NCBI GenBank assembly: GCA_035544355.1
Contig: DATKFO010000656.1
Coordinates: 1-24,545 of the forward strand
DNA from: Thermoanaerobaculia bacterium
GTDB taxonomy: Bacteria > Acidobacteriota > Thermoanaerobaculia > Gp7-AA8
DNA length: 24,545 nucleotides
Reading direction: 5' to 3'
Numbering within the stretch: the stretch's first letter is position 1; every line of letters begins with the position of its first letter. Shown here piece by piece: positions 3,185 through 16,373 of this stretch. The notes under the pieces are model-generated. The model had not been told where the DNA came from, did not search any database, and worked only from the letters and a program-made list of their open reading frames with translations. A program made the translations under genes and the position numbers.

Positions 3185-3403
3185 TGGCGTGCGCGCGGCC
3201 ATGCCGCCGCTTTGGGTCGCGTGATCTGGGTTGCAAGGTTGCGCGGTGAACCTTGGATGGCGGACTTATAGTCCGCCGGTTTTTGCGCGAGGCGGCGGAC
3301 TGTAAGTCCGCCGTCCAGGAGCCGTGATTCAGACCGCGCAACCGCGCAACTCCGCAACCCGAAATACGATACCCAAAGCGGCGGCATGGCCGCGCGCACT
3401 CCA
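3185..3403. repeat. Nested REP/BIME-like inverted-repeat composite
   Basis: Outer arms 3185-3217 and 3371-3403 (33 bp, 1 mismatch). Middle arms of octamer units GGGT-TGCAAGGT-TGCGCGGT (3228-3247) versus ACCGCGCA-ACCGCGCA-ACTCCGCA-ACCC (3333-3360). Inner arms 3253-3278 and 3293-3318 (26 bp, 3 mismatches), each containing a GGCGGACT-nnn-AGTCCGCC palindrome. Confidence 0.85.
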
Positions 3404-4868: not shown

Positions 4869-4885
4869 ACTTTCTGCGCTAGAAC

Positions 4886-4911
4886 CGGCGGACTATAAGT
4901 CCGCCGTCCAA
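4886..4911. repeat. Single REP-like palindrome, same family as the inner arms at 3253/3293
   Basis: CGGCGGACTATAAGTCCGCCGTCCAA differs by 1 nt from the reverse complement of 3253-3278. It sits 3 nt past the kinase stop codon. Confidence 0.85.
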
Positions 4912-9440: not shown

Positions 9441-10373
9441 ATGTCCGAAGCGCCTGAAGACGCCGTGCTCGTCGGAGCGGCACCGGCAGATGTGACGACG
9501 ATCGCCGGCTGGATCCGCCAGAAGAGATGCGTGTTGTTTCTCGGGGCGGGCGTGCATTCGCTGCCGCCTCCCGAGTCCCATTATCAATACGCGGACAGCG
9601 AGCGGCCGCGCGGTGCGAGCGAGTTGATCAAACACCTCGCGGAAATGAGCCGGTACGCCGACGATTACCCGGACGAAGTGCCCAACAACCTCGGGAGAAT
9701 CTCGCTCTACTTCGAGACCAAGAGGCCGACGCTCGATCGCAGCGCCCTCATCACCGAAGTTCGGAAGCTCGTCCAGACGGGGAAGCGTCCTTCCTCCGTG
9801 GTTCGTGGACTCGCTGCTCTCGATTTCCCGCTCATCGCGACGACGAACTACGACCAGCTGATCGAAGACGCGCTGCGAGAGCACAGAAAGCGTCCGGTCA
9901 TCTCTGTTTACAAGCGAAAGTCGAAGGAGAGCACCGATACGTACGCCGGATCGGAGGTTGAGCCGACGCCGGAGGAGCCGTTCGTGCTCAAGATTCACGG
10001 CGACATCAACAAAGAGGACTCGATCGTCATCACGGACGAGGACTACATCCATTTCATGCTGCGCATGAGAGACGCGGGGCAGTTTGATCCGGTACCGCCG
10101 GTCTTTCGCTATCAATTCACGACCTACGCGACGCTGTTCATCGGCTACAGCCTTCTCGACTACAACCTGAGGCTTCTGTTCAAAGCGCTGCGCTGGGAAG
10201 TCGAAGGCGGCCCGGTGCGGCCGCCGTCATACGCCGTCGATCCGAAGCCGGATCGTCTGATCCGCGATGTGTATGGCGATCAGCATCGATTCGTTCATTT
10301 CATCGTCAGAGACGTGTGGTCCTTCGTTCCGATGCTGTACCGCGAGCTCAAAGGCACCGAGATGCCGGAGTGA
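9441..10373 (+). CDS. Stand-alone SIR2-like (SIR2_2-type) protein, putative NADase
   Basis: CVLFLGAGV, IATTNYDQLIE, VLKIHGD, IVITDEDY and LFIGYSLLDYN motifs. Confidence 0.9.
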   Translation: MSEAPEDAVLVGAAPADVTTIAGWIRQKRCVLFLGAGVHSLPPPESHYQYADSERPRGASELIKHLAEMSRYADDYPDEVPNNLGRISLYFETKRPTLDRSALITEVRKLVQTGKRPSSVVRGLAALDFPLIATTNYDQLIEDALREHRKRPVISVYKRKSKESTDTYAGSEVEPTPEEPFVLKIHGDINKEDSIVITDEDYIHFMLRMRDAGQFDPVPPVFRYQFTTYATLFIGYSLLDYNLRLLFKALRWEVEGGPVRPPSYAVDPKPDRLIRDVYGDQHRFVHFIVRDVWSFVPMLYRELKGTEMPE

Positions 10374-12205
10374 CGTCGATGTCCATGTTGCCGACCGAAA
10401 GTTCCGCCATGTCATCCACAGACTCGCAGCGGATTGCGACGCCTTTGCCGAAAGCGCCGTATCGCGGGATCGAGGAGTTCCGCTGCATCGACTCCGCCAT
10501 CTTTTTCGGGCGCGACAGCGAAGGAAAGACGCTGCTGCGGCTCATCACCATGTATCGCGGCGTGCTCCTTTACGGCGATTCCGGCGCCGGCAAGTCGTCG
10601 CTCATCAACGCGAAGCTCATTCCGATGGCGATGGCCGAGCAGTTCGCGCCGGAACGCGTCCGCGTGCAGCCGAAACTCGGAGAGGAGTTCATCGTCGAGC
10701 GCATCGCGATCGCGGAAGAGGGGAGTGCGCTGCTGCCGACGATCTTCAGCGACGGCGATGGTTCGCCGCGGATCAGTTTCTCGGCTGCGGCATTCGTGCA
10801 GCGCGTGATCGAACGCTGCCACGCGCGGATCGACGGCGACGGGATCCCGCAACTACCGGCGCAGTTTCCGCTCCTCGTCTTCGACCAGTTCGAAGAGCTC
10901 GTCACACTGTCCGAACAGTTCGCGAGGGAGACGCGAAGCACGGTCGCGTATGAAGCGTATGCGTCGATCACACGCGCGTTGCTCGAGCTGCTGCAAGACG
11001 AATCGCTTTGCCTGAAGATGCTGTTCGTTTTTCGCGAGGACTATTACGCGAAGCTGAGCAAGTTCTTCGCGCTTCATCCCGGCCTGACGAATCATTTTCT
11101 GCGGATCGAGCCGCTGCACACTTCGCAGTTGCACACGATCATCGCCGGTCCGTTCGAGACGATCGCCTTCGATCACGTGCTTCCCGCGAACGTGATCGCG
11201 AGTCTGGAGCGCGAGCTCCGCGAGCGCAGCGACTCGGATCTCATCAACCTCTCGGAGGTACAGATCGCGTCATTGCGGCTCTGGAATTCGAGCGAGCCGA
11301 TGAAGCTGCTCGAGGAGCAGCACGTAGCGGGACTGCTCGAATCGTATTTTTCCGCGGCCATCGATGCATTGCCGCCGCTGCATCAGCAGATCGCGTACGT
11401 CCTGTTGGGAAGGATGGTCACTGACTCGGGGACGCGGAACGTCGTTTCCACTGAGGATCTCGTGGCCAGCGTCGAGGGAGAGAGGGTCGACCGGAGAATC
11501 GCGTTCGAAGTGCTGGATGCGCTCACGAAGAGCGCGCGCGTGATTCGCCGCGAGCGAAGAAGCGACGTGCTCGTCTACGAGATCGTGAGCGAGTATCTCG
11601 TGCCGTGGATTCGCCGGCGCAAGCTGGAGGAACAGGCGGCGCGCGAACGCCGGGCGGAGTACGAGCGGGAGCTGCAATCGAGGAAGCGGCGCTGGAAATG
11701 GATCGCGGTCAGCATGCTCGTCGTGTCGCTGCTCGTCGTCGGAGCGATGGCCATCGAGATCTACCGGCGCTCGAGCACGGAATTGTTCCGCAGTCGTGAA
11801 GAAGCGGTGGCCACTGCGAAACGGCTCACGAGTCAGCAAAAAGATCTGCTGCGAATCCAGGAGTCGCTTCGCGAGGAGCTGACGAATACAAAGGCTTCGG
11901 TCACTCGCACGCAACGCGCGCTCGAGAACGCCTTGTTCAACATGGTGGAGGAGCGCCAGCGAGCGGACACGAATCAGCGACTGCTCGCCGGGGCACGCGC
12001 GCGGATCGTAGTGTTGGACCGAGAGCTCGCAATGATTCGTACGCAGCTCGAGCACTCCGAGGGAGAATCCCAGACTCTGAAGAAAGACATCGATGCGCTG
12101 AAGAAAGAAAACGACTCGCTCAAGAAAGAAAACGAGTCGCTGAAGAAGCGTGTCGAGGCGCTACAGCAAACGCCGTTCGTCAACACCGGGACCTACGGTC
12201 CCTGA
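10370..12205 (+). CDS. STAND-family (nSTAND1-like) ATPase with winged-helix region, TM helix and C-terminal coiled coil
   Basis: PYRGIEEF..DSAIFFGR N-terminus, Walker A GDSGAGKSS, Walker B LLVFDQFEEL, FVFREDY, INLSEVQI, YEIVSEYL; TM WIAVSMLVVSLLVVGAMAIEIY. GTG at 10370 overlaps the SIR2 TGA (GTGA); alternative ATGs at 10379 and 10385. Confidence 0.88.
   Translation: MTSMSMLPTESSAMSSTDSQRIATPLPKAPYRGIEEFRCIDSAIFFGRDSEGKTLLRLITMYRGVLLYGDSGAGKSSLINAKLIPMAMAEQFAPERVRVQPKLGEEFIVERIAIAEEGSALLPTIFSDGDGSPRISFSAAAFVQRVIERCHARIDGDGIPQLPAQFPLLVFDQFEELVTLSEQFARETRSTVAYEAYASITRALLELLQDESLCLKMLFVFREDYYAKLSKFFALHPGLTNHFLRIEPLHTSQLHTIIAGPFETIAFDHVLPANVIASLERELRERSDSDLINLSEVQIASLRLWNSSEPMKLLEEQHVAGLLESYFSAAIDALPPLHQQIAYVLLGRMVTDSGTRNVVSTEDLVASVEGERVDRRIAFEVLDALTKSARVIRRERRSDVLVYEIVSEYLVPWIRRRKLEEQAARERRAEYERELQSRKRRWKWIAVSMLVVSLLVVGAMAIEIYRRSSTELFRSREEAVATAKRLTSQQKDLLRIQESLREELTNTKASVTRTQRALENALFNMVEERQRADTNQRLLAGARARIVVLDRELAMIRTQLEHSEGESQTLKKDIDALKKENDSLKKENESLKKRVEALQQTPFVNTGTYGP
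12077..12160 (+). repeat. Four tandem 21-bp units encoding leucine heptads
   Basis: LKKDIDA LKKENDS LKKENES LKKRVEA; units 2 and 3 differ at only 2 nt. Confidence 0.8.
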
Positions 12206-12566: not shown

Positions 12567-15500
12567 ATGTCCTTCGTTCACCTCCACCTCCACACGGAAT
12601 ACTCCCTGCTCGACGGCGCCACTCGACCGGACGCGCTCGCCAAGCGCGTCGCGCAGCTCGGGATGCCCGCGTGCGCGATCACCGATCACGGCAACATGTT
12701 CGGCGCGGTCGAGTTCTACAACGCGATGAAGAGCGTCGGCGTGAAGCCCATCATCGGGTGCGAGATGTACATGGCGTACGGCTCGCGGCACGACAAGACG
12801 TCCGTCGAAGATCAGCAGGCCGACGCCGGATCGAACAATCACCTCATCGTCCTCGCGTCGAACGACACCGGCTACAAGAATCTCGTCAAGCTCGTGAGCG
12901 CCGGCTACACCGAGGGCTTCTATTACAAGCCGCGCATCGACAAGGAAATCCTGCGCGAGCATCGCGAAGGACTCATCGTTCTCTCGTCGTGCTTGAAAGG
13001 CGAGGTCTCGCAGAATCTCGCGCAGGGAAATTACACGCGCGCAAAAGACGCCGCGCTGCAGTTCAAGGAGATCCTCGGGCCCGACAACTTCTTTCTGGAG
13101 ATCCAGGACCACGGCATTCCGGATCAGCAGAAGATCGTCCCGATGATGGCGCGCCTCGGCGAAGAGGTCGGCCTGCCGCTCATCGCCACGAACGACTCGC
13201 ACTACCTCAACAAAGACGACGCGTTCGCACACGAAGTGCTGCTCTGCATCGGCACGGGCAAAACGCTCAACGACGAAAAGCGGATGAAGTTCTACTCGGA
13301 CGACTTCTACGTGAAGGGTCCGGACGAGATGCGCCGCATTTTCTCCGCGTATCCCGAGGCGCTCGCGAACACGGTGCGCATCGCCGAGCGCGTGCATATG
13401 TCGCTCGACGTGAAGGGCCACCATCTCCCGAAATTTCCGGTGCCCGAGGGCTATGACCTCAATACGTACTTCGCGGAGATCGTGCGCGCGGGTTTGAAGA
13501 AACGCCTGAGCGCCGCCACGCGGAGAAAGCACGAGCCGCAGGAGTATTGGGATCGCCTCGAGCGCGAGATCGACATCATCAACAACATGGGATTCCCGGG
13601 CTACTTCCTCGTGGTCTGGGACTTCATCAAATACGCGAAAGACAGCGGCATCCCGGTCGGTCCGGGGCGCGGTTCCGCGGCGGGCTCGCTCGTCGCGTAC
13701 TCGATGGGCATCACCGACGTCGATCCGCTCGAGTACGACCTGCTGTTCGAGCGCTTCCTCAATCCCGAGCGTATCTCGATGCCCGACATCGACATCGACT
13801 TCTGCATGAACAATCGCGGGCGCGTGATCGAGTACGTGCGCAAGAAATACGGGAAAGAGAACGTCGCGCAGATCATCACGTTCGGAACGATGGCCGCGAA
13901 GTCGGTCGTGCGCGACGTCGGCCGCGTGATCGGCTTGCCGTACGGGCTCGTCGACAAAGTCGCGAAGACGATTCCCACGGGCCCGGATGTCACGCTCGAA
14001 AACGCTCCGAAGGATTCGCCCGCGCTCGCGGAAGCGATGAAGAACGATGCGGAAGTCGCGCGCATCGTCGAGATCGGCGCGCGGCTCGAAGGACTCTCGC
14101 GCCACGCGGGGATGCACGCGGCCGGCGTCGTCATCACGCCTGAGCCGGTGACGAATTACGTTCCGCTCTACCTCACGAACCGCGATGAAATCGTGACGCA
14201 GTACGACATGCGCGTCGTCGAGAAGATGGGTCTTCTCAAGATGGACTTCCTCGGCCTGCGCACGCTGACGGTCATCGACGACGCGCTGAAGTCCGCTGCG
14301 CGCGAGACCGGCACGAAGATCGAGATCGAGGCGATTCCGCTCGACGATCCCGACGTCTTCCGCCATTTTCAGGAAGGGCGCACGAAGGGCGTGTTCCAGT
14401 TCGAGTCGGGCGGCATGGTCGATCTGCTGCGCAAATCGCGGCCGACAAAATTCGAAGATCTCGCGGCGTTGAACGCGCTTTATCGCCCCGGTGCGCTCGA
14501 TGCCGGCATGGTCGACGAGTACGTCCGGCGCAAGAACGGGCAGTCGAAGGCGAAGTACCTCGTCCCCGAGATGAAGGAGATTCTCGAAGAGACGTACGGC
14601 GTCATCGTCTATCAGGAGCAGGTGATGCAGATCGCGCAGCGCGTGGCCGGCTACTCCCTCGGCCAGGCGGATCTGCTGCGCAAGGCGATGGGCAAGAAAG
14701 ACGCCGCGATGATGGCCGCGGAGCGCGACAAGTTCGTCGCCGGCGCCGTCGCGAACGGCTACGAGAAGAAGAAAGCGAACGAGGTCTTCGACTACATCGA
14801 GCCGTTCGCGCGCTACGGCTTCAACAAGTCACACTCCGTCGCGTACGCGCTCGTCGCGTATCAGACGGCGTGGCTGAAGGTGCATCACCCGCGGCACTTC
14901 ATGGCCGCGCTCATGAGCTCGGAGATGGACAAGACCGAAGCGGTCGTGAAGTTCATCAACGAAGCGAAGTCGATGGGCATCGAGGTGATGCCGCCCGATA
15001 TCAACGAATCGAATTACTGGTTCACCGTCGTCGGCCAGAACATCCGCTTCGGCCTCGGCGCAGTGAAAGGCGTCGGCGAAAGCGCGATCGAATCGATCCT
15101 CGCCGGGCGCCAGAAGATCGGGCGCTTCACGTCGCTGCTGCAGTTCTGCGAGGAGGTCGATCTCCGCGCGTGCAACAAGAAAGTGCTCGAAGCGCTGATC
15201 AAATCGGGCTCGTTCGATTTTCTCGGCGGCTCGCGCAAGGCGCTGTTCGATCAGATCGAGCCGATCTCCGATTCCGCGCAGCGCACGAAGGATGAGAAGG
15301 AGCGCGGACAGAGCTCGCTGTTCGGCAATGTGGCACAGACACTCTTGTCTGTGCCGAAGGGTGCACAGACAGGAGTGTCTGTGCCACAGAAAGCCGAATG
15401 GCCTGAAGACGAGAAGCTCCGCAACGAAAAAGAAACGCTCGGCTTCTACATCACCGGCCATCCGCTCACGCGTTACGCGAACGAGCTGAAGATGTTCGCC

Positions 15501-16373
15501 AATGCGACGACCGAAACGCTCTACCGTTTCATCGACCAGACCGCGAACATCGGCGGCATCGTCTCGCAGATCAAGAAATCGAAAATCAAGAAGGGTCCGA
15601 ACGAAGGGAAGTTGATGGCGAAGTTCGTCCTCGACGATCAATTCGGATCCGTCGACGTCGTCGTCTTCAGCGATCTCTACGCGAAGTACGCGCGCTGGCT
15701 CGACAACGGCGTCGCGGTGCTCATCACGGGAGCGGTGAAAGACACGGGCGGCATGACCACGGGACGCAGCGCTTCGCTCCAATCGGCGGAGCAGTCCGCG
15801 CAGCACATCGATGATGAATACGGCGGACATCCGGAGACGTCACGCGCGCGCGTGTCTGCGTATGAAGTGCGCATCGACGATGCGGAAGAAGACGATCGCG
15901 ATCCGAAAGAGATCGAGCGCGATCGCATCGGTGCCGATGTCGACAAGTTCAACCTCGGACTCTTCGGCGAGCCCGCAGCCGCGGAGCCCGAGGACGCGAT
16001 CGTTGAAGAGCCGGTCACGTTCAAAGAACATGCGGCTGCATTTCACGAAGCGCCGATCACGCCGGAGCTCTCCGCGCTGGAGATCGTGCCGCTCGACGGC
16101 ATCCGCGACAAGAAGGTGAAAGAGATCGCGCTCGAAGTACCGTATCCGCGCATGAGCGAAGACACGGTGAAGCGCATTCGCGAGATCGTCGAAGAGCACG
16201 CGGGCGAGATTCCGCTGAGCATTACGATCGTCGAACTGCCCGCGGACGTCGCGCAAAACGTCGGCCGCGCGGACATGCGTCTGCGCATCAATCATCACTT
16301 CCGCGTGCAACCGGGTGCGGCACTCACGCAGGCGCTCGGGCGTGTATATGCACATGCGCGATACGTCTTCTGA
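12567..16373 (+). CDS. dnaE: DNA polymerase III alpha subunit
   Basis: PHP domain (HLHLHTEYSLLDG, TDHG, NDSHY), GPGRGSAAGS, FERFLNPER.SMPDIDIDF, GLLKMDFLGL, YGFNKSHS, clamp motif QSSLF, EKETLGFYITGHP, OB fold. Confidence 0.99.
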   Translation: MSFVHLHLHTEYSLLDGATRPDALAKRVAQLGMPACAITDHGNMFGAVEFYNAMKSVGVKPIIGCEMYMAYGSRHDKTSVEDQQADAGSNNHLIVLASNDTGYKNLVKLVSAGYTEGFYYKPRIDKEILREHREGLIVLSSCLKGEVSQNLAQGNYTRAKDAALQFKEILGPDNFFLEIQDHGIPDQQKIVPMMARLGEEVGLPLIATNDSHYLNKDDAFAHEVLLCIGTGKTLNDEKRMKFYSDDFYVKGPDEMRRIFSAYPEALANTVRIAERVHMSLDVKGHHLPKFPVPEGYDLNTYFAEIVRAGLKKRLSAATRRKHEPQEYWDRLEREIDIINNMGFPGYFLVVWDFIKYAKDSGIPVGPGRGSAAGSLVAYSMGITDVDPLEYDLLFERFLNPERISMPDIDIDFCMNNRGRVIEYVRKKYGKENVAQIITFGTMAAKSVVRDVGRVIGLPYGLVDKVAKTIPTGPDVTLENAPKDSPALAEAMKNDAEVARIVEIGARLEGLSRHAGMHAAGVVITPEPVTNYVPLYLTNRDEIVTQYDMRVVEKMGLLKMDFLGLRTLTVIDDALKSAARETGTKIEIEAIPLDDPDVFRHFQEGRTKGVFQFESGGMVDLLRKSRPTKFEDLAALNALYRPGALDAGMVDEYVRRKNGQSKAKYLVPEMKEILEETYGVIVYQEQVMQIAQRVAGYSLGQADLLRKAMGKKDAAMMAAERDKFVAGAVANGYEKKKANEVFDYIEPFARYGFNKSHSVAYALVAYQTAWLKVHHPRHFMAALMSSEMDKTEAVVKFINEAKSMGIEVMPPDINESNYWFTVVGQNIRFGLGAVKGVGESAIESILAGRQKIGRFTSLLQFCEEVDLRACNKKVLEALIKSGSFDFLGGSRKALFDQIEPISDSAQRTKDEKERGQSSLFGNVAQTLLSVPKGAQTGVSVPQKAEWPEDEKLRNEKETLGFYITGHPLTRYANELKMFANATTETLYRFIDQTANIGGIVSQIKKSKIKKGPNEGKLMAKFVLDDQFGSVDVVVFSDLYAKYARWLDNGVAVLITGAVKDTGGMTTGRSASLQSAEQSAQHIDDEYGGHPETSRARVSAYEVRIDDAEEDDRDPKEIERDRIGADVDKFNLGLFGEPAAAEPEDAIVEEPVTFKEHAAAFHEAPITPELSALEIVPLDGIRDKKVKEIALEVPYPRMSEDTVKRIREIVEEHAGEIPLSITIVELPADVAQNVGRADMRLRINHHFRVQPGAALTQALGRVYAHARYVF
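15329..15388. repeat. 60-bp REP doublet in frame within dnaE
   Basis: Arms 15329-15354 and 15363-15388 (26 bp, 1 mismatch). Each arm is GTGG-led on its own strand and contains a GCACAGACA-nnnn-TGTCTGTGC hairpin. Confidence 0.9.

Follow-up and report, generated by a model that had tools for sequence, protein, structure and literature searches.

Among the known elements close to the one considered here are repeats called repetitive extragenic palindromic (REP) sequences. GTAG- and CGTC-tagged REPs were defined by Di Nocera, De Gregorio and Rocco (2013; BMC Genomics 14:522, PMC3733652), who found them to be mostly intergenic. In the same study, a minority of REPs lie wholly inside open reading frames (ORFs), in frame, and over half of these intragenic inserts are dimers encoding 20–30 aa. 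Many intragenic REPs reside in replication or repair genes, including dnaE2 (O. terrae, aa 934–971 of 1116; S. wittichii); an in-frame REP is also listed in R. conorii dnaE (aa 853–861), and in Xanthomonas recB different REPs are found at about the same site (PMC3733652). Rickettsia palindromic elements (RPEs; Ogata et al., 2000, 2002), as they are cited in that work, are the classic in-frame palindromic repeats of functional genes. Finally, REPINs (REP doublets forming a hairpin) have been described as extragenic, and belong to systems in which a single-copy REP-associated tyrosine transposase (RAYT) gene is flanked by REPs (Bertels and Rainey; Nunvar et al., 2010, PMC2817692). The present analysis concerns a 60-nt palindromic element located within dnaE, the gene for the alpha subunit of DNA polymerase III, in a 24,545-nt stretch of DNA from a Thermoanaerobaculia bacterium (assembly GCA_035544355.1, contig DATKFO010000656.1, positions 1 to 24,545), hereafter called the window.

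The element is a REPIN whose translation product makes up nearly the whole linker that follows the internal clamp-binding motif of DnaE. In our judgment, this copy is probably a tolerated passenger that now serves as the linker, at a site refilled repeatedly by REP families.

A REP doublet translated within dnaE

The features on which the argument rests are the following.

12567..16373, + strand: dnaE (DNA polymerase III alpha subunit), intact ORF of 1268 aa (ORF list and translation)
15309..15323, + strand: internal beta-clamp-binding motif QSSLF, aa 915–919 (alignment with known clamp motifs)
15329..15388, no strand assigned: 60-nt REPIN-like doublet, two inverted family-A REP hairpins able to pair as one long hairpin
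15330..15354, + strand: left REP, GTGG head and 22-nt core (stem 9, loop CTCT), encodes VAQTLLSV
15355..15362, + strand: spacer CGAAGGGT, 8 nt, encodes part of P-K-G
15363..15387, + strand: right REP, 22-nt core (loop GGAG) and CCAC tail, encodes AQTGVSVP
15330..15389, + strand: 20 in-frame codons from the element (aa 922–941; translation), 20 of the 24 linker residues
15396..15419, + strand: EWPEDEKL helix, start of the segment toward the OB domain, conserved in relatives

Pfam assigns to the product the PHP (aa 5–182), DNA_pol3_alpha (301–563), finger (566–731), HHH_6 (804–893) and OB-fold (995–1062) domains. Together with the alignment, this gives the PHP, palm/fingers, HhH, internal QxxLF clamp motif and OB fold of a replicative DnaE, in order; a DnaE2-like paralog with 33% identity is encoded elsewhere in the window genome (G000:C587). 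In alignments with known structures (5fku, 7pu7 and 2hpi), QSSLF matches the QxxLF clamp motif of E. coli Pol III alpha (5fku_A, 920–924) and that of M. tuberculosis DnaE1 (7pu7). Orthologs of dnaE were found in 29 of the 30 relatives searched. Q..LF is kept among relatives' DnaE and the E-W pair of the EWPEDEKL helix is invariant in 29 aligned homologs. The element thus sits, in terms of Pfam domains, between HHH_6 and the OB fold.

Sequence and translation agree with the initial annotation, in which a palindromic 60-bp element at 15329–15388 encoded 20 residues between QSSLFGN and KAEWPEDEKL. The encoded peptide is VAQTLLSVPKGAQTGVSVPQ, and its codons are one base off the palindrome because dnaE starts at 12567. 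A repeat search delimits two arms of 26 nt (15329–15354 and 15363–15388) that are 96% complementary and 8 nt apart. The double palindrome had been called exact. This is true of the two 22-nt hairpin cores (15333–15354 and 15363–15384), within each of which pairing is perfect, but the arms differ at a single loop position and the 8-nt spacer is not palindromic. The word GGCACAGACA occurs four times within the 60 nt, for 0.9 occurrence expected in the entire window. The RNA fold of 15319–15398, a single hairpin, reaches −61.7 kcal/mol, as compared with −24.0 ± 3.3 for shuffled sequences (z −11.5; 0/200 as good), and the region has the strongest fold (z −7.4) among 120 equal-size windows along dnaE. 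The palindrome is far beyond chance.

The most abundant REP family of the genome

The window genome (G000) is a 4.5-Mb soil metagenome-assembled genome (MAG) of 916 contigs, 76% complete, assigned to the Thermoanaerobaculia (Acidobacteriota). The hairpin GCACAGACA-N4-TGTCTGTGC, here called family A, is present in 246 copies (≤2 substitutions) on 129 of these contigs, arranged as 104 inverted doublets and 38 singles. With at most one mismatch, 237 hairpins are counted, nearly all outside genes, and a reversed-pattern control yields 0; the earlier description of the element as a REP doublet is therefore sound, and its family is of high copy number. Family A is also the commonest perfect hairpin of G000, with 228 copies of its 8-mer stem CACAGACA as against 89 for the next family. 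It has the form of a short palindrome with a GTAG-like head: a 9-bp stem, a 4-nt loop and, in G000, a GTGG head. The elements are mainly extragenic (only 8 of 142 are in confirmed genes). Both cores of the dnaE copy, 15333–15354 and 15363–15384, are exact family-A matches and its termini fit the genome-wide consensus A-T-GTGGCAC...GTGCCAC-A-T.

Family-A doublets fall into two classes: a short one of 57–74 nt, in which the spacers vary, and a long one of about 100 nt, which contains a conserved inner module. The spacer of the dnaE doublet is shorter than the 16–19 nt usual in the short class, according to the spacers of all doublets listed. Long-class doublets (e.g. C469:4717-4810) share the inner module actcgggaggccggagc...catcccgcgcggg, in either orientation; half of them are also bordered on the outside by the inverted flanks cgtctcaaa / tttgagacg, suggesting that they are nested within a larger palindromic unit.

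Target-site duplications of at least 3 nt were sought at 93 doublets. With the element end set at GTGG, none was found in 3–8-nt flanks (0/93; control 0.1) and, with the end set at ATGTGG, there was at most 1/93 (control about 1); the conserved AT..AT belongs to the inverted repeat itself. A miniature inverted-repeat transposable element derived from an insertion sequence (IS) with a DDE transposase was considered and rejected, as there is no target-site duplication. No full-length element with family-A ends occurs in the loci read, although no exhaustive search for a parent IS was made. Rfam returned for the element sub-threshold matches to miRNA precursors only, which are generic long hairpins, and a terminator scan of the element found nothing, with no terminator-like tail. 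The element is a REPIN: an inverted pair of REP hairpins of the most abundant GTAG/GTGG-headed family in G000.

Among 30 relatives, family A counts 225, 200, 30 and 12 copies in four genomes of the same family and 0 in the other 26. A scan of species genomes finds it mainly in soil Thermoanaerobaculia MAGs, including one complete chromosome. Contigs of MAGs that bear the labels Eisenbacteria, Acidiferrales/Acidoferrales, Angelobacter and Kapaibacterium likewise contain exact family-A hairpins (L083, L106, L113, L114, L124, L136), which could result from mis-binning or lateral spread. G000 has at least six abundant hairpin families; in the window, a second REP family (core GGCGGACTTATAGTCCGCC) forms intergenic inverted pairs at 3253–3317 and 4876–4911.

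The insert is present in the source metagenome

A metagenome assembler may splice a high-copy repeat into a gene, and several features of the data are of the kind expected from such an artefact: the MAG is fragmented (916 contigs), 18 contig ends lie within 60 nt of a family-A core, and summed depth rises about 200-fold from the flanks to the element. However, the source soil run holds 94% of the sampled words and its Logan contigs, which constitute an independent assembly, cover 15161–15354 and 15328–15577 with 0 mismatches each. Both junctions are therefore matched exactly, and one contig spans the whole element including its unique spacer. Moreover, both flanks belong to the same gene, in frame, and REP linkers are found at the same dnaE site in many independent assemblies. 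An assembly artefact, against which the initial annotation had cautioned, is accordingly very improbable. No joint skipping the element was seen in the Logan contigs of the source run, although contigs cannot exclude rare excision alleles. In a relative present in another run, a different sequence of 87 letters stands where the window has 15328–15423.

The element takes the place of the native linker

Linker lengths were measured in the 29 relatives, in 120 listed proteins including P0001 (115 measurable) and in 12 further family-A genomes. In all of the about 135 related DnaE examined, the linker after the clamp motif has 16–31 aa, and in the solved E. coli and M. tuberculosis enzymes 19–23 residues separate the clamp motif from the conserved Trp. 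The idea that a normal DnaE has a linker at this position is thus well founded. Aligning the dnaE genes of relatives, a check proposed with that idea, shows that length is kept but sequence is not, the linker varying greatly between two strongly conserved flanks. In the window DnaE, 24 residues lie between QSSLF and the EWP helix, of which only G, K, A and part of N do not come from the element. With these four residues left, compared with 16–31 aa in relatives, the native linker has in effect been replaced, as had been supposed.

Several REP families at the same site

The insertion had been viewed as an isolated event. This view does not hold, since families A, B, C, D and F, as well as decayed doublets, are found in the same linker of many related DnaE. 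Linkers were typed approximately, from peptide patterns, with confirmation in DNA for families A, B, C, D and F. Family-A linkers are found in P0002, P0003/4, P0014, P0024 and G045, and decayed ones in P0005, P0007, P0013, P0019, P0025, P0027 and P0059; at the DNA level, family A occupies the dnaE linker at loci L184–L186 and L207. Family-B linkers (GTAGGACAGGCA) are carried by P0011, P0017, P0032, P0066 and others, P0017 (L224) having a perfect family-B doublet in DNA (−61 kcal/mol). A family-C linker (GTAGGACGGGC) is present in G004 (L008), whose 74 family-C copies are the most among relatives. Family D is found in G016 and G017 (loci L010/L011) and family F (GTAGGTCGGACT) in G034 and G044 (loci L198/L206), whereas the linker of P0012 is of a decayed 'PLSP..GARG' type. 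Going by peptide patterns, no less than a third of the sequences have a recognisably repeat-derived linker, and at least five REP families have contributed doublets to this site.

These linker types are scattered over a DnaE tree built without the linker, on which no fewer than 10 changes are required to explain family A in 12 rows. (The unpublished relative G024 is a distant row of the DnaE alignment and one of the two outgroup rows of the tree; no conclusion rests on it.) Sisters only 3–5% apart have unrelated linkers, as in P0002 (A), P0048 (E) and P0003 (A), or P0024 (A) versus P0064 (E), and P0013 (A-like) is sister to L005, which has a 17-aa non-repeat linker. L184 and L185 share 94% aa identity, yet their spacers differ and a paired change distinguishes their head and tail, GTGG..CCAC versus the GTAG..CTAC carried by the L185 dnaE copy; this suggests that the two copies derive from separate source elements.

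Alternatively, a REP could have inserted just once, long ago, in the family's ancestor, the insert then being inherited vertically, updated by gene conversion from the genomic REP pool (concerted evolution) and left to decay where the REP family was lost. Position and reading frame are indeed identical in all REP families, and the flanks bear no sign of recent transfer. In L184 and L186, which belong to distant DnaE clades, the spacers even encode one and the same peptide, PAEK, and differ at three third positions. However, the scatter of linker types on the tree and the unrelated, non-REP linkers of close sisters (P0013 versus L005) are difficult to reconcile with such a history, and conversion between families with different stems is hard to picture with 22-nt cores. 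Two candidate signs of one ancestral insertion were also set aside or weakened: the shared N-V start reflects A[CT]GT[AG]G, part of the REP consensus, rather than a common junction, and the PAEK spacer is like the 3' part of common REPIN spacers (...GCGAGAAA), so that it could be a parallel derivative. We therefore regard a single ancient insertion as improbable; the dnaE linker site has been refilled repeatedly in related lineages.

Three further observations concern other parts of DnaE and of the window. A second repeat-tolerant site is found near aa 315–335, between the PHP domain and the palm, with a family-B REP in P0017 (L224:6954-6997, aa about 318–332), a family-A REP in P0005 (aa about 325–335) and another repeat-like insert in P0053 (aa about 325–350). 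In the C-terminal region, 15744–16058 corresponds to a long acidic insertion opening with DTGG..GRSASLQSAEQ..IDDEYGGHPE; this start is conserved across 29 aligned homologs, and is therefore a clade signature rather than a trait specific to the window genome. Upstream of dnaE, four tandem 21-nt units with heptad-like Lys/Glu-rich codons (12064–12168) lie near the 3' end of the ORF 10316–12205.

Other genes with in-frame copies

The genome-wide search for copies that the initial annotation had proposed finds, besides intergenic copies, at least eight family-A copies in frame within Pfam-confirmed genes of G000, DnaE included. This also substantiates the parallel it had drawn with RPEs. Outside dnaE (loci L035–L040 and L222), the genes are, all with Pfam support:

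C38: GT2 glycosyltransferase with an in-frame family-A copy
C63: MurD with an in-frame family-A copy
C120: tandem rhodanese with a family-A copy in its linker
C246: CCA/poly(A) polymerase with an in-frame family-A copy
C443: citrate synthase with a long-class family-A doublet, 34 aa
C511: beta-lactamase-fold protein with an in-frame family-A copy
C407: second GT2 with an in-frame family-A copy

Six of the eight in-frame copies use the frame AQT(L/G)(L/V)SVP. In MurD, the hairpin takes the place of a loop of equal length (14 aa in all nine orthologs); in citrate synthase, the doublet is a net insertion. In the loop where G000 has its 34-aa doublet, the citrate synthase of G002 (L210, G002:C28) carries another insert, and a TAG lies within the match. 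Several candidates were discarded. The element-spanning ORFs of C12, C759, C534, C48 and C566, obtained from a screen based on GC3 (G+C content at third codon positions), have no Pfam support and are false candidates. The C286 copy is probably intergenic, upstream of a Sir2 gene, and the C623 copy, between the domains of a possibly fused ORF, was left uncounted.

A RAYT associated with family A

REPIN–RAYT systems were reportedly also treated by Ton-Hoang et al. in 2012. For family A, a candidate cognate transposase is found in the relative G031 (complete chromosome OY970284.1), where a 167-aa ORF (L194:1324-1827) is identified as a RAYT by the NCBIfam equivalog model NF047646 (83.2 bits, cut-off 80). 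It has the HUH and Y..NP motifs and is flanked by family-A hairpins at 1111 and 1243 (upstream) and at 1837, 10 nt past the stop codon, an arrangement known as a REPtron. No RAYT flanked by family A was found in G000, G009, G014, G016 or G017 in windows of ~6 kb (shorter at contig ends) around every Y1_Tnp match. A family-A transposase was thus not recovered in G000, an incomplete MAG; a RAYT would be responsible for family-A mobilisation in this genome.

Two other GTAG families form REPtrons in G000, at C357:1203-1836 and C104:2565-3397. Their RAYT homologs share 54% and 46% identity with the RAYT of G031, and the hairpins that flank them are ACGTAGGACAGGC... and ACGTAGGACAACC.... At C250, the core GGCGGACTTATAGTCCGCC lies about 80 nt from a RAYT-like gene.

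Tolerated passenger or selected structure

How the element became part of DnaE may be envisaged as follows. A REPIN copy would have landed in the part of dnaE that encodes the flexible tether joining the internal clamp-binding motif to the OB domain. Direct reading of the sequence shows that none of the six frames of the family-A hairpin contains a stop codon and, as the added length is a multiple of three, the element is simply translated. The tether seems to need length (16–31 aa) and not a particular sequence, such that a repeat-encoded peptide would suffice and the earlier linker codons could be lost. In related lineages, the same site would have been refilled by whichever REP family was active, and the near-perfect symmetry seen in the window would be that of a young copy. 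The linker peptide and the hairpin would both be neutral, and we infer insertion and deletion to have occurred in this order.

Several results do not sit easily with this scheme. The linker is modelled as coil with low confidence, the AlphaFold prediction of aa 790–1100 being poor (pLDDT 55), so that disorder of the linker peptide is only weakly supported. No linker of about 40 aa, corresponding to an old linker plus a new element, is found among the sequences examined; a simple two-step route of insertion then deletion has therefore left no intermediates. The genomes G009, G014 and G031 are rich in family A and have no family A in the dnaE linker, which means that insertion at this site is not automatic. 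The three RAYT homologs of G000 (C104, C357, C250) each adjoin a different GTAG-headed REP family and none is beside family A, in a MAG that is 76% complete. Finally, in four genes with a family-A linker, whose proteins are 78–83% identical to the window DnaE and whose four-fold sites are 52–65% identical, the 22-nt cores are nearly identical and the stems are identical at third codon positions.

Taken alone, such conserved stems would also fit selection on the stems. One may then imagine that the hairpin itself is selected, as a stem-loop in dnaE mRNA or DNA at the clamp-binding/OB boundary that acts as a translational pause for domain folding, in the control of mRNA decay or as a protein-binding site, REP families being recruited and replaced to keep it. 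Strong hairpins unrelated in sequence are indeed found exactly in the linker (z −7.4 in the window, −4.3 in G004, −4.4 in G016 and −3.4 in G017), the linkers of L198, L206 and L224 reach −48 to −61 kcal/mol, and in four diverged genes the stems are intact at synonymous positions while the spacers differ. However, most relatives have no hairpin there (z is close to 0 in about half of the 29, and in all those outside the family); decayed REP linkers are common; the same elements are in frame in unrelated genes; and neither a terminator-like tail nor an Rfam family is associated with the element. Fast turnover alone accounts for intact stems. We consider selection of the hairpin unlikely. A related proposal, to which we give slightly less credit still, is that the clamp-motif/OB segment is kept as a nucleic-acid hairpin site, either for a co-translational pause or for a REP-binding protein linking replication to REPIN activity, with successive REP families recruited to it. 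If true, this would be a programmed structure in the mRNA or DNA of a replicase, conserved although its sequence was replaced wholesale.

Returning to the tolerated passenger, the fast turnover of linkers on the tree makes it simpler to read each copy as young, and near-perfect symmetry most likely reflects recent arrival. The initial annotation had left the choice between a recent event and selection on structure. The turnover favours the first term, while a small share of probability stays with the second.

Comparison with known systems

The locus offers a clean natural case of selfish palindromic DNA that is the working linker of an essential enzyme. REPIN target choice, the speed of turnover and the cost or use of a hairpin of about −60 kcal/mol within an ORF can be tested through this site. 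Annotation is concerned as well: in REP-rich phyla, a hypervariable 20-aa segment of a conserved protein may often be a translated repeat, and peptide 'motifs' in such segments mirror DNA palindromes, not protein function.

Compared by behaviour only, the element resembles RPEs in being an in-frame palindromic repeat tolerated at surface or linker positions. RPE-1 is however longer (about 100–150 bp), and the hosts of RPEs have reduced intracellular genomes whereas the host here is a REP-rich free-living soil bacterium. To our knowledge, RPE-1 has no RAYT link, and we know of no reason to expect sequence homology between RPEs and the element.

With REPIN–RAYT systems, the likeness lies in the pairing of two inverted REPs and a spacer into one long hairpin, in the hundreds of near-identical copies, in the absence of target duplication and in the existence of a REP-flanked RAYT. 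It should, however, be noted that the RAYT cognate to family A was found only in a relative and that about 6% of the copies are here translated.

The element also closely resembles the intragenic REPs of Di Nocera et al. (PMC3733652), which are also short palindromes with a GTAG-type head, form in-frame dimers, occur in replication genes and include one site shared by different REPs. The presence of such an element in an essential replicase, stressed in the initial annotation, is confirmed, but it is less unprecedented than was implied, because R. conorii dnaE and several dnaE2 are already listed (PMC3733652). In-frame REPs in replication genes are thus of a known kind. What is new here is first the phylum, the host being an Acidobacteriota (Thermoanaerobaculia) MAG in which the head is GTGG. 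The exact site is also new, as the dimer supplies almost all of the tether that links clamp motif and OB domain in a replicative DnaE and is not an addition to the protein. The last new feature is the scale of recurrent occupancy, the same dnaE site being held by at least five REP families across one bacterial family, with conserved linker length.

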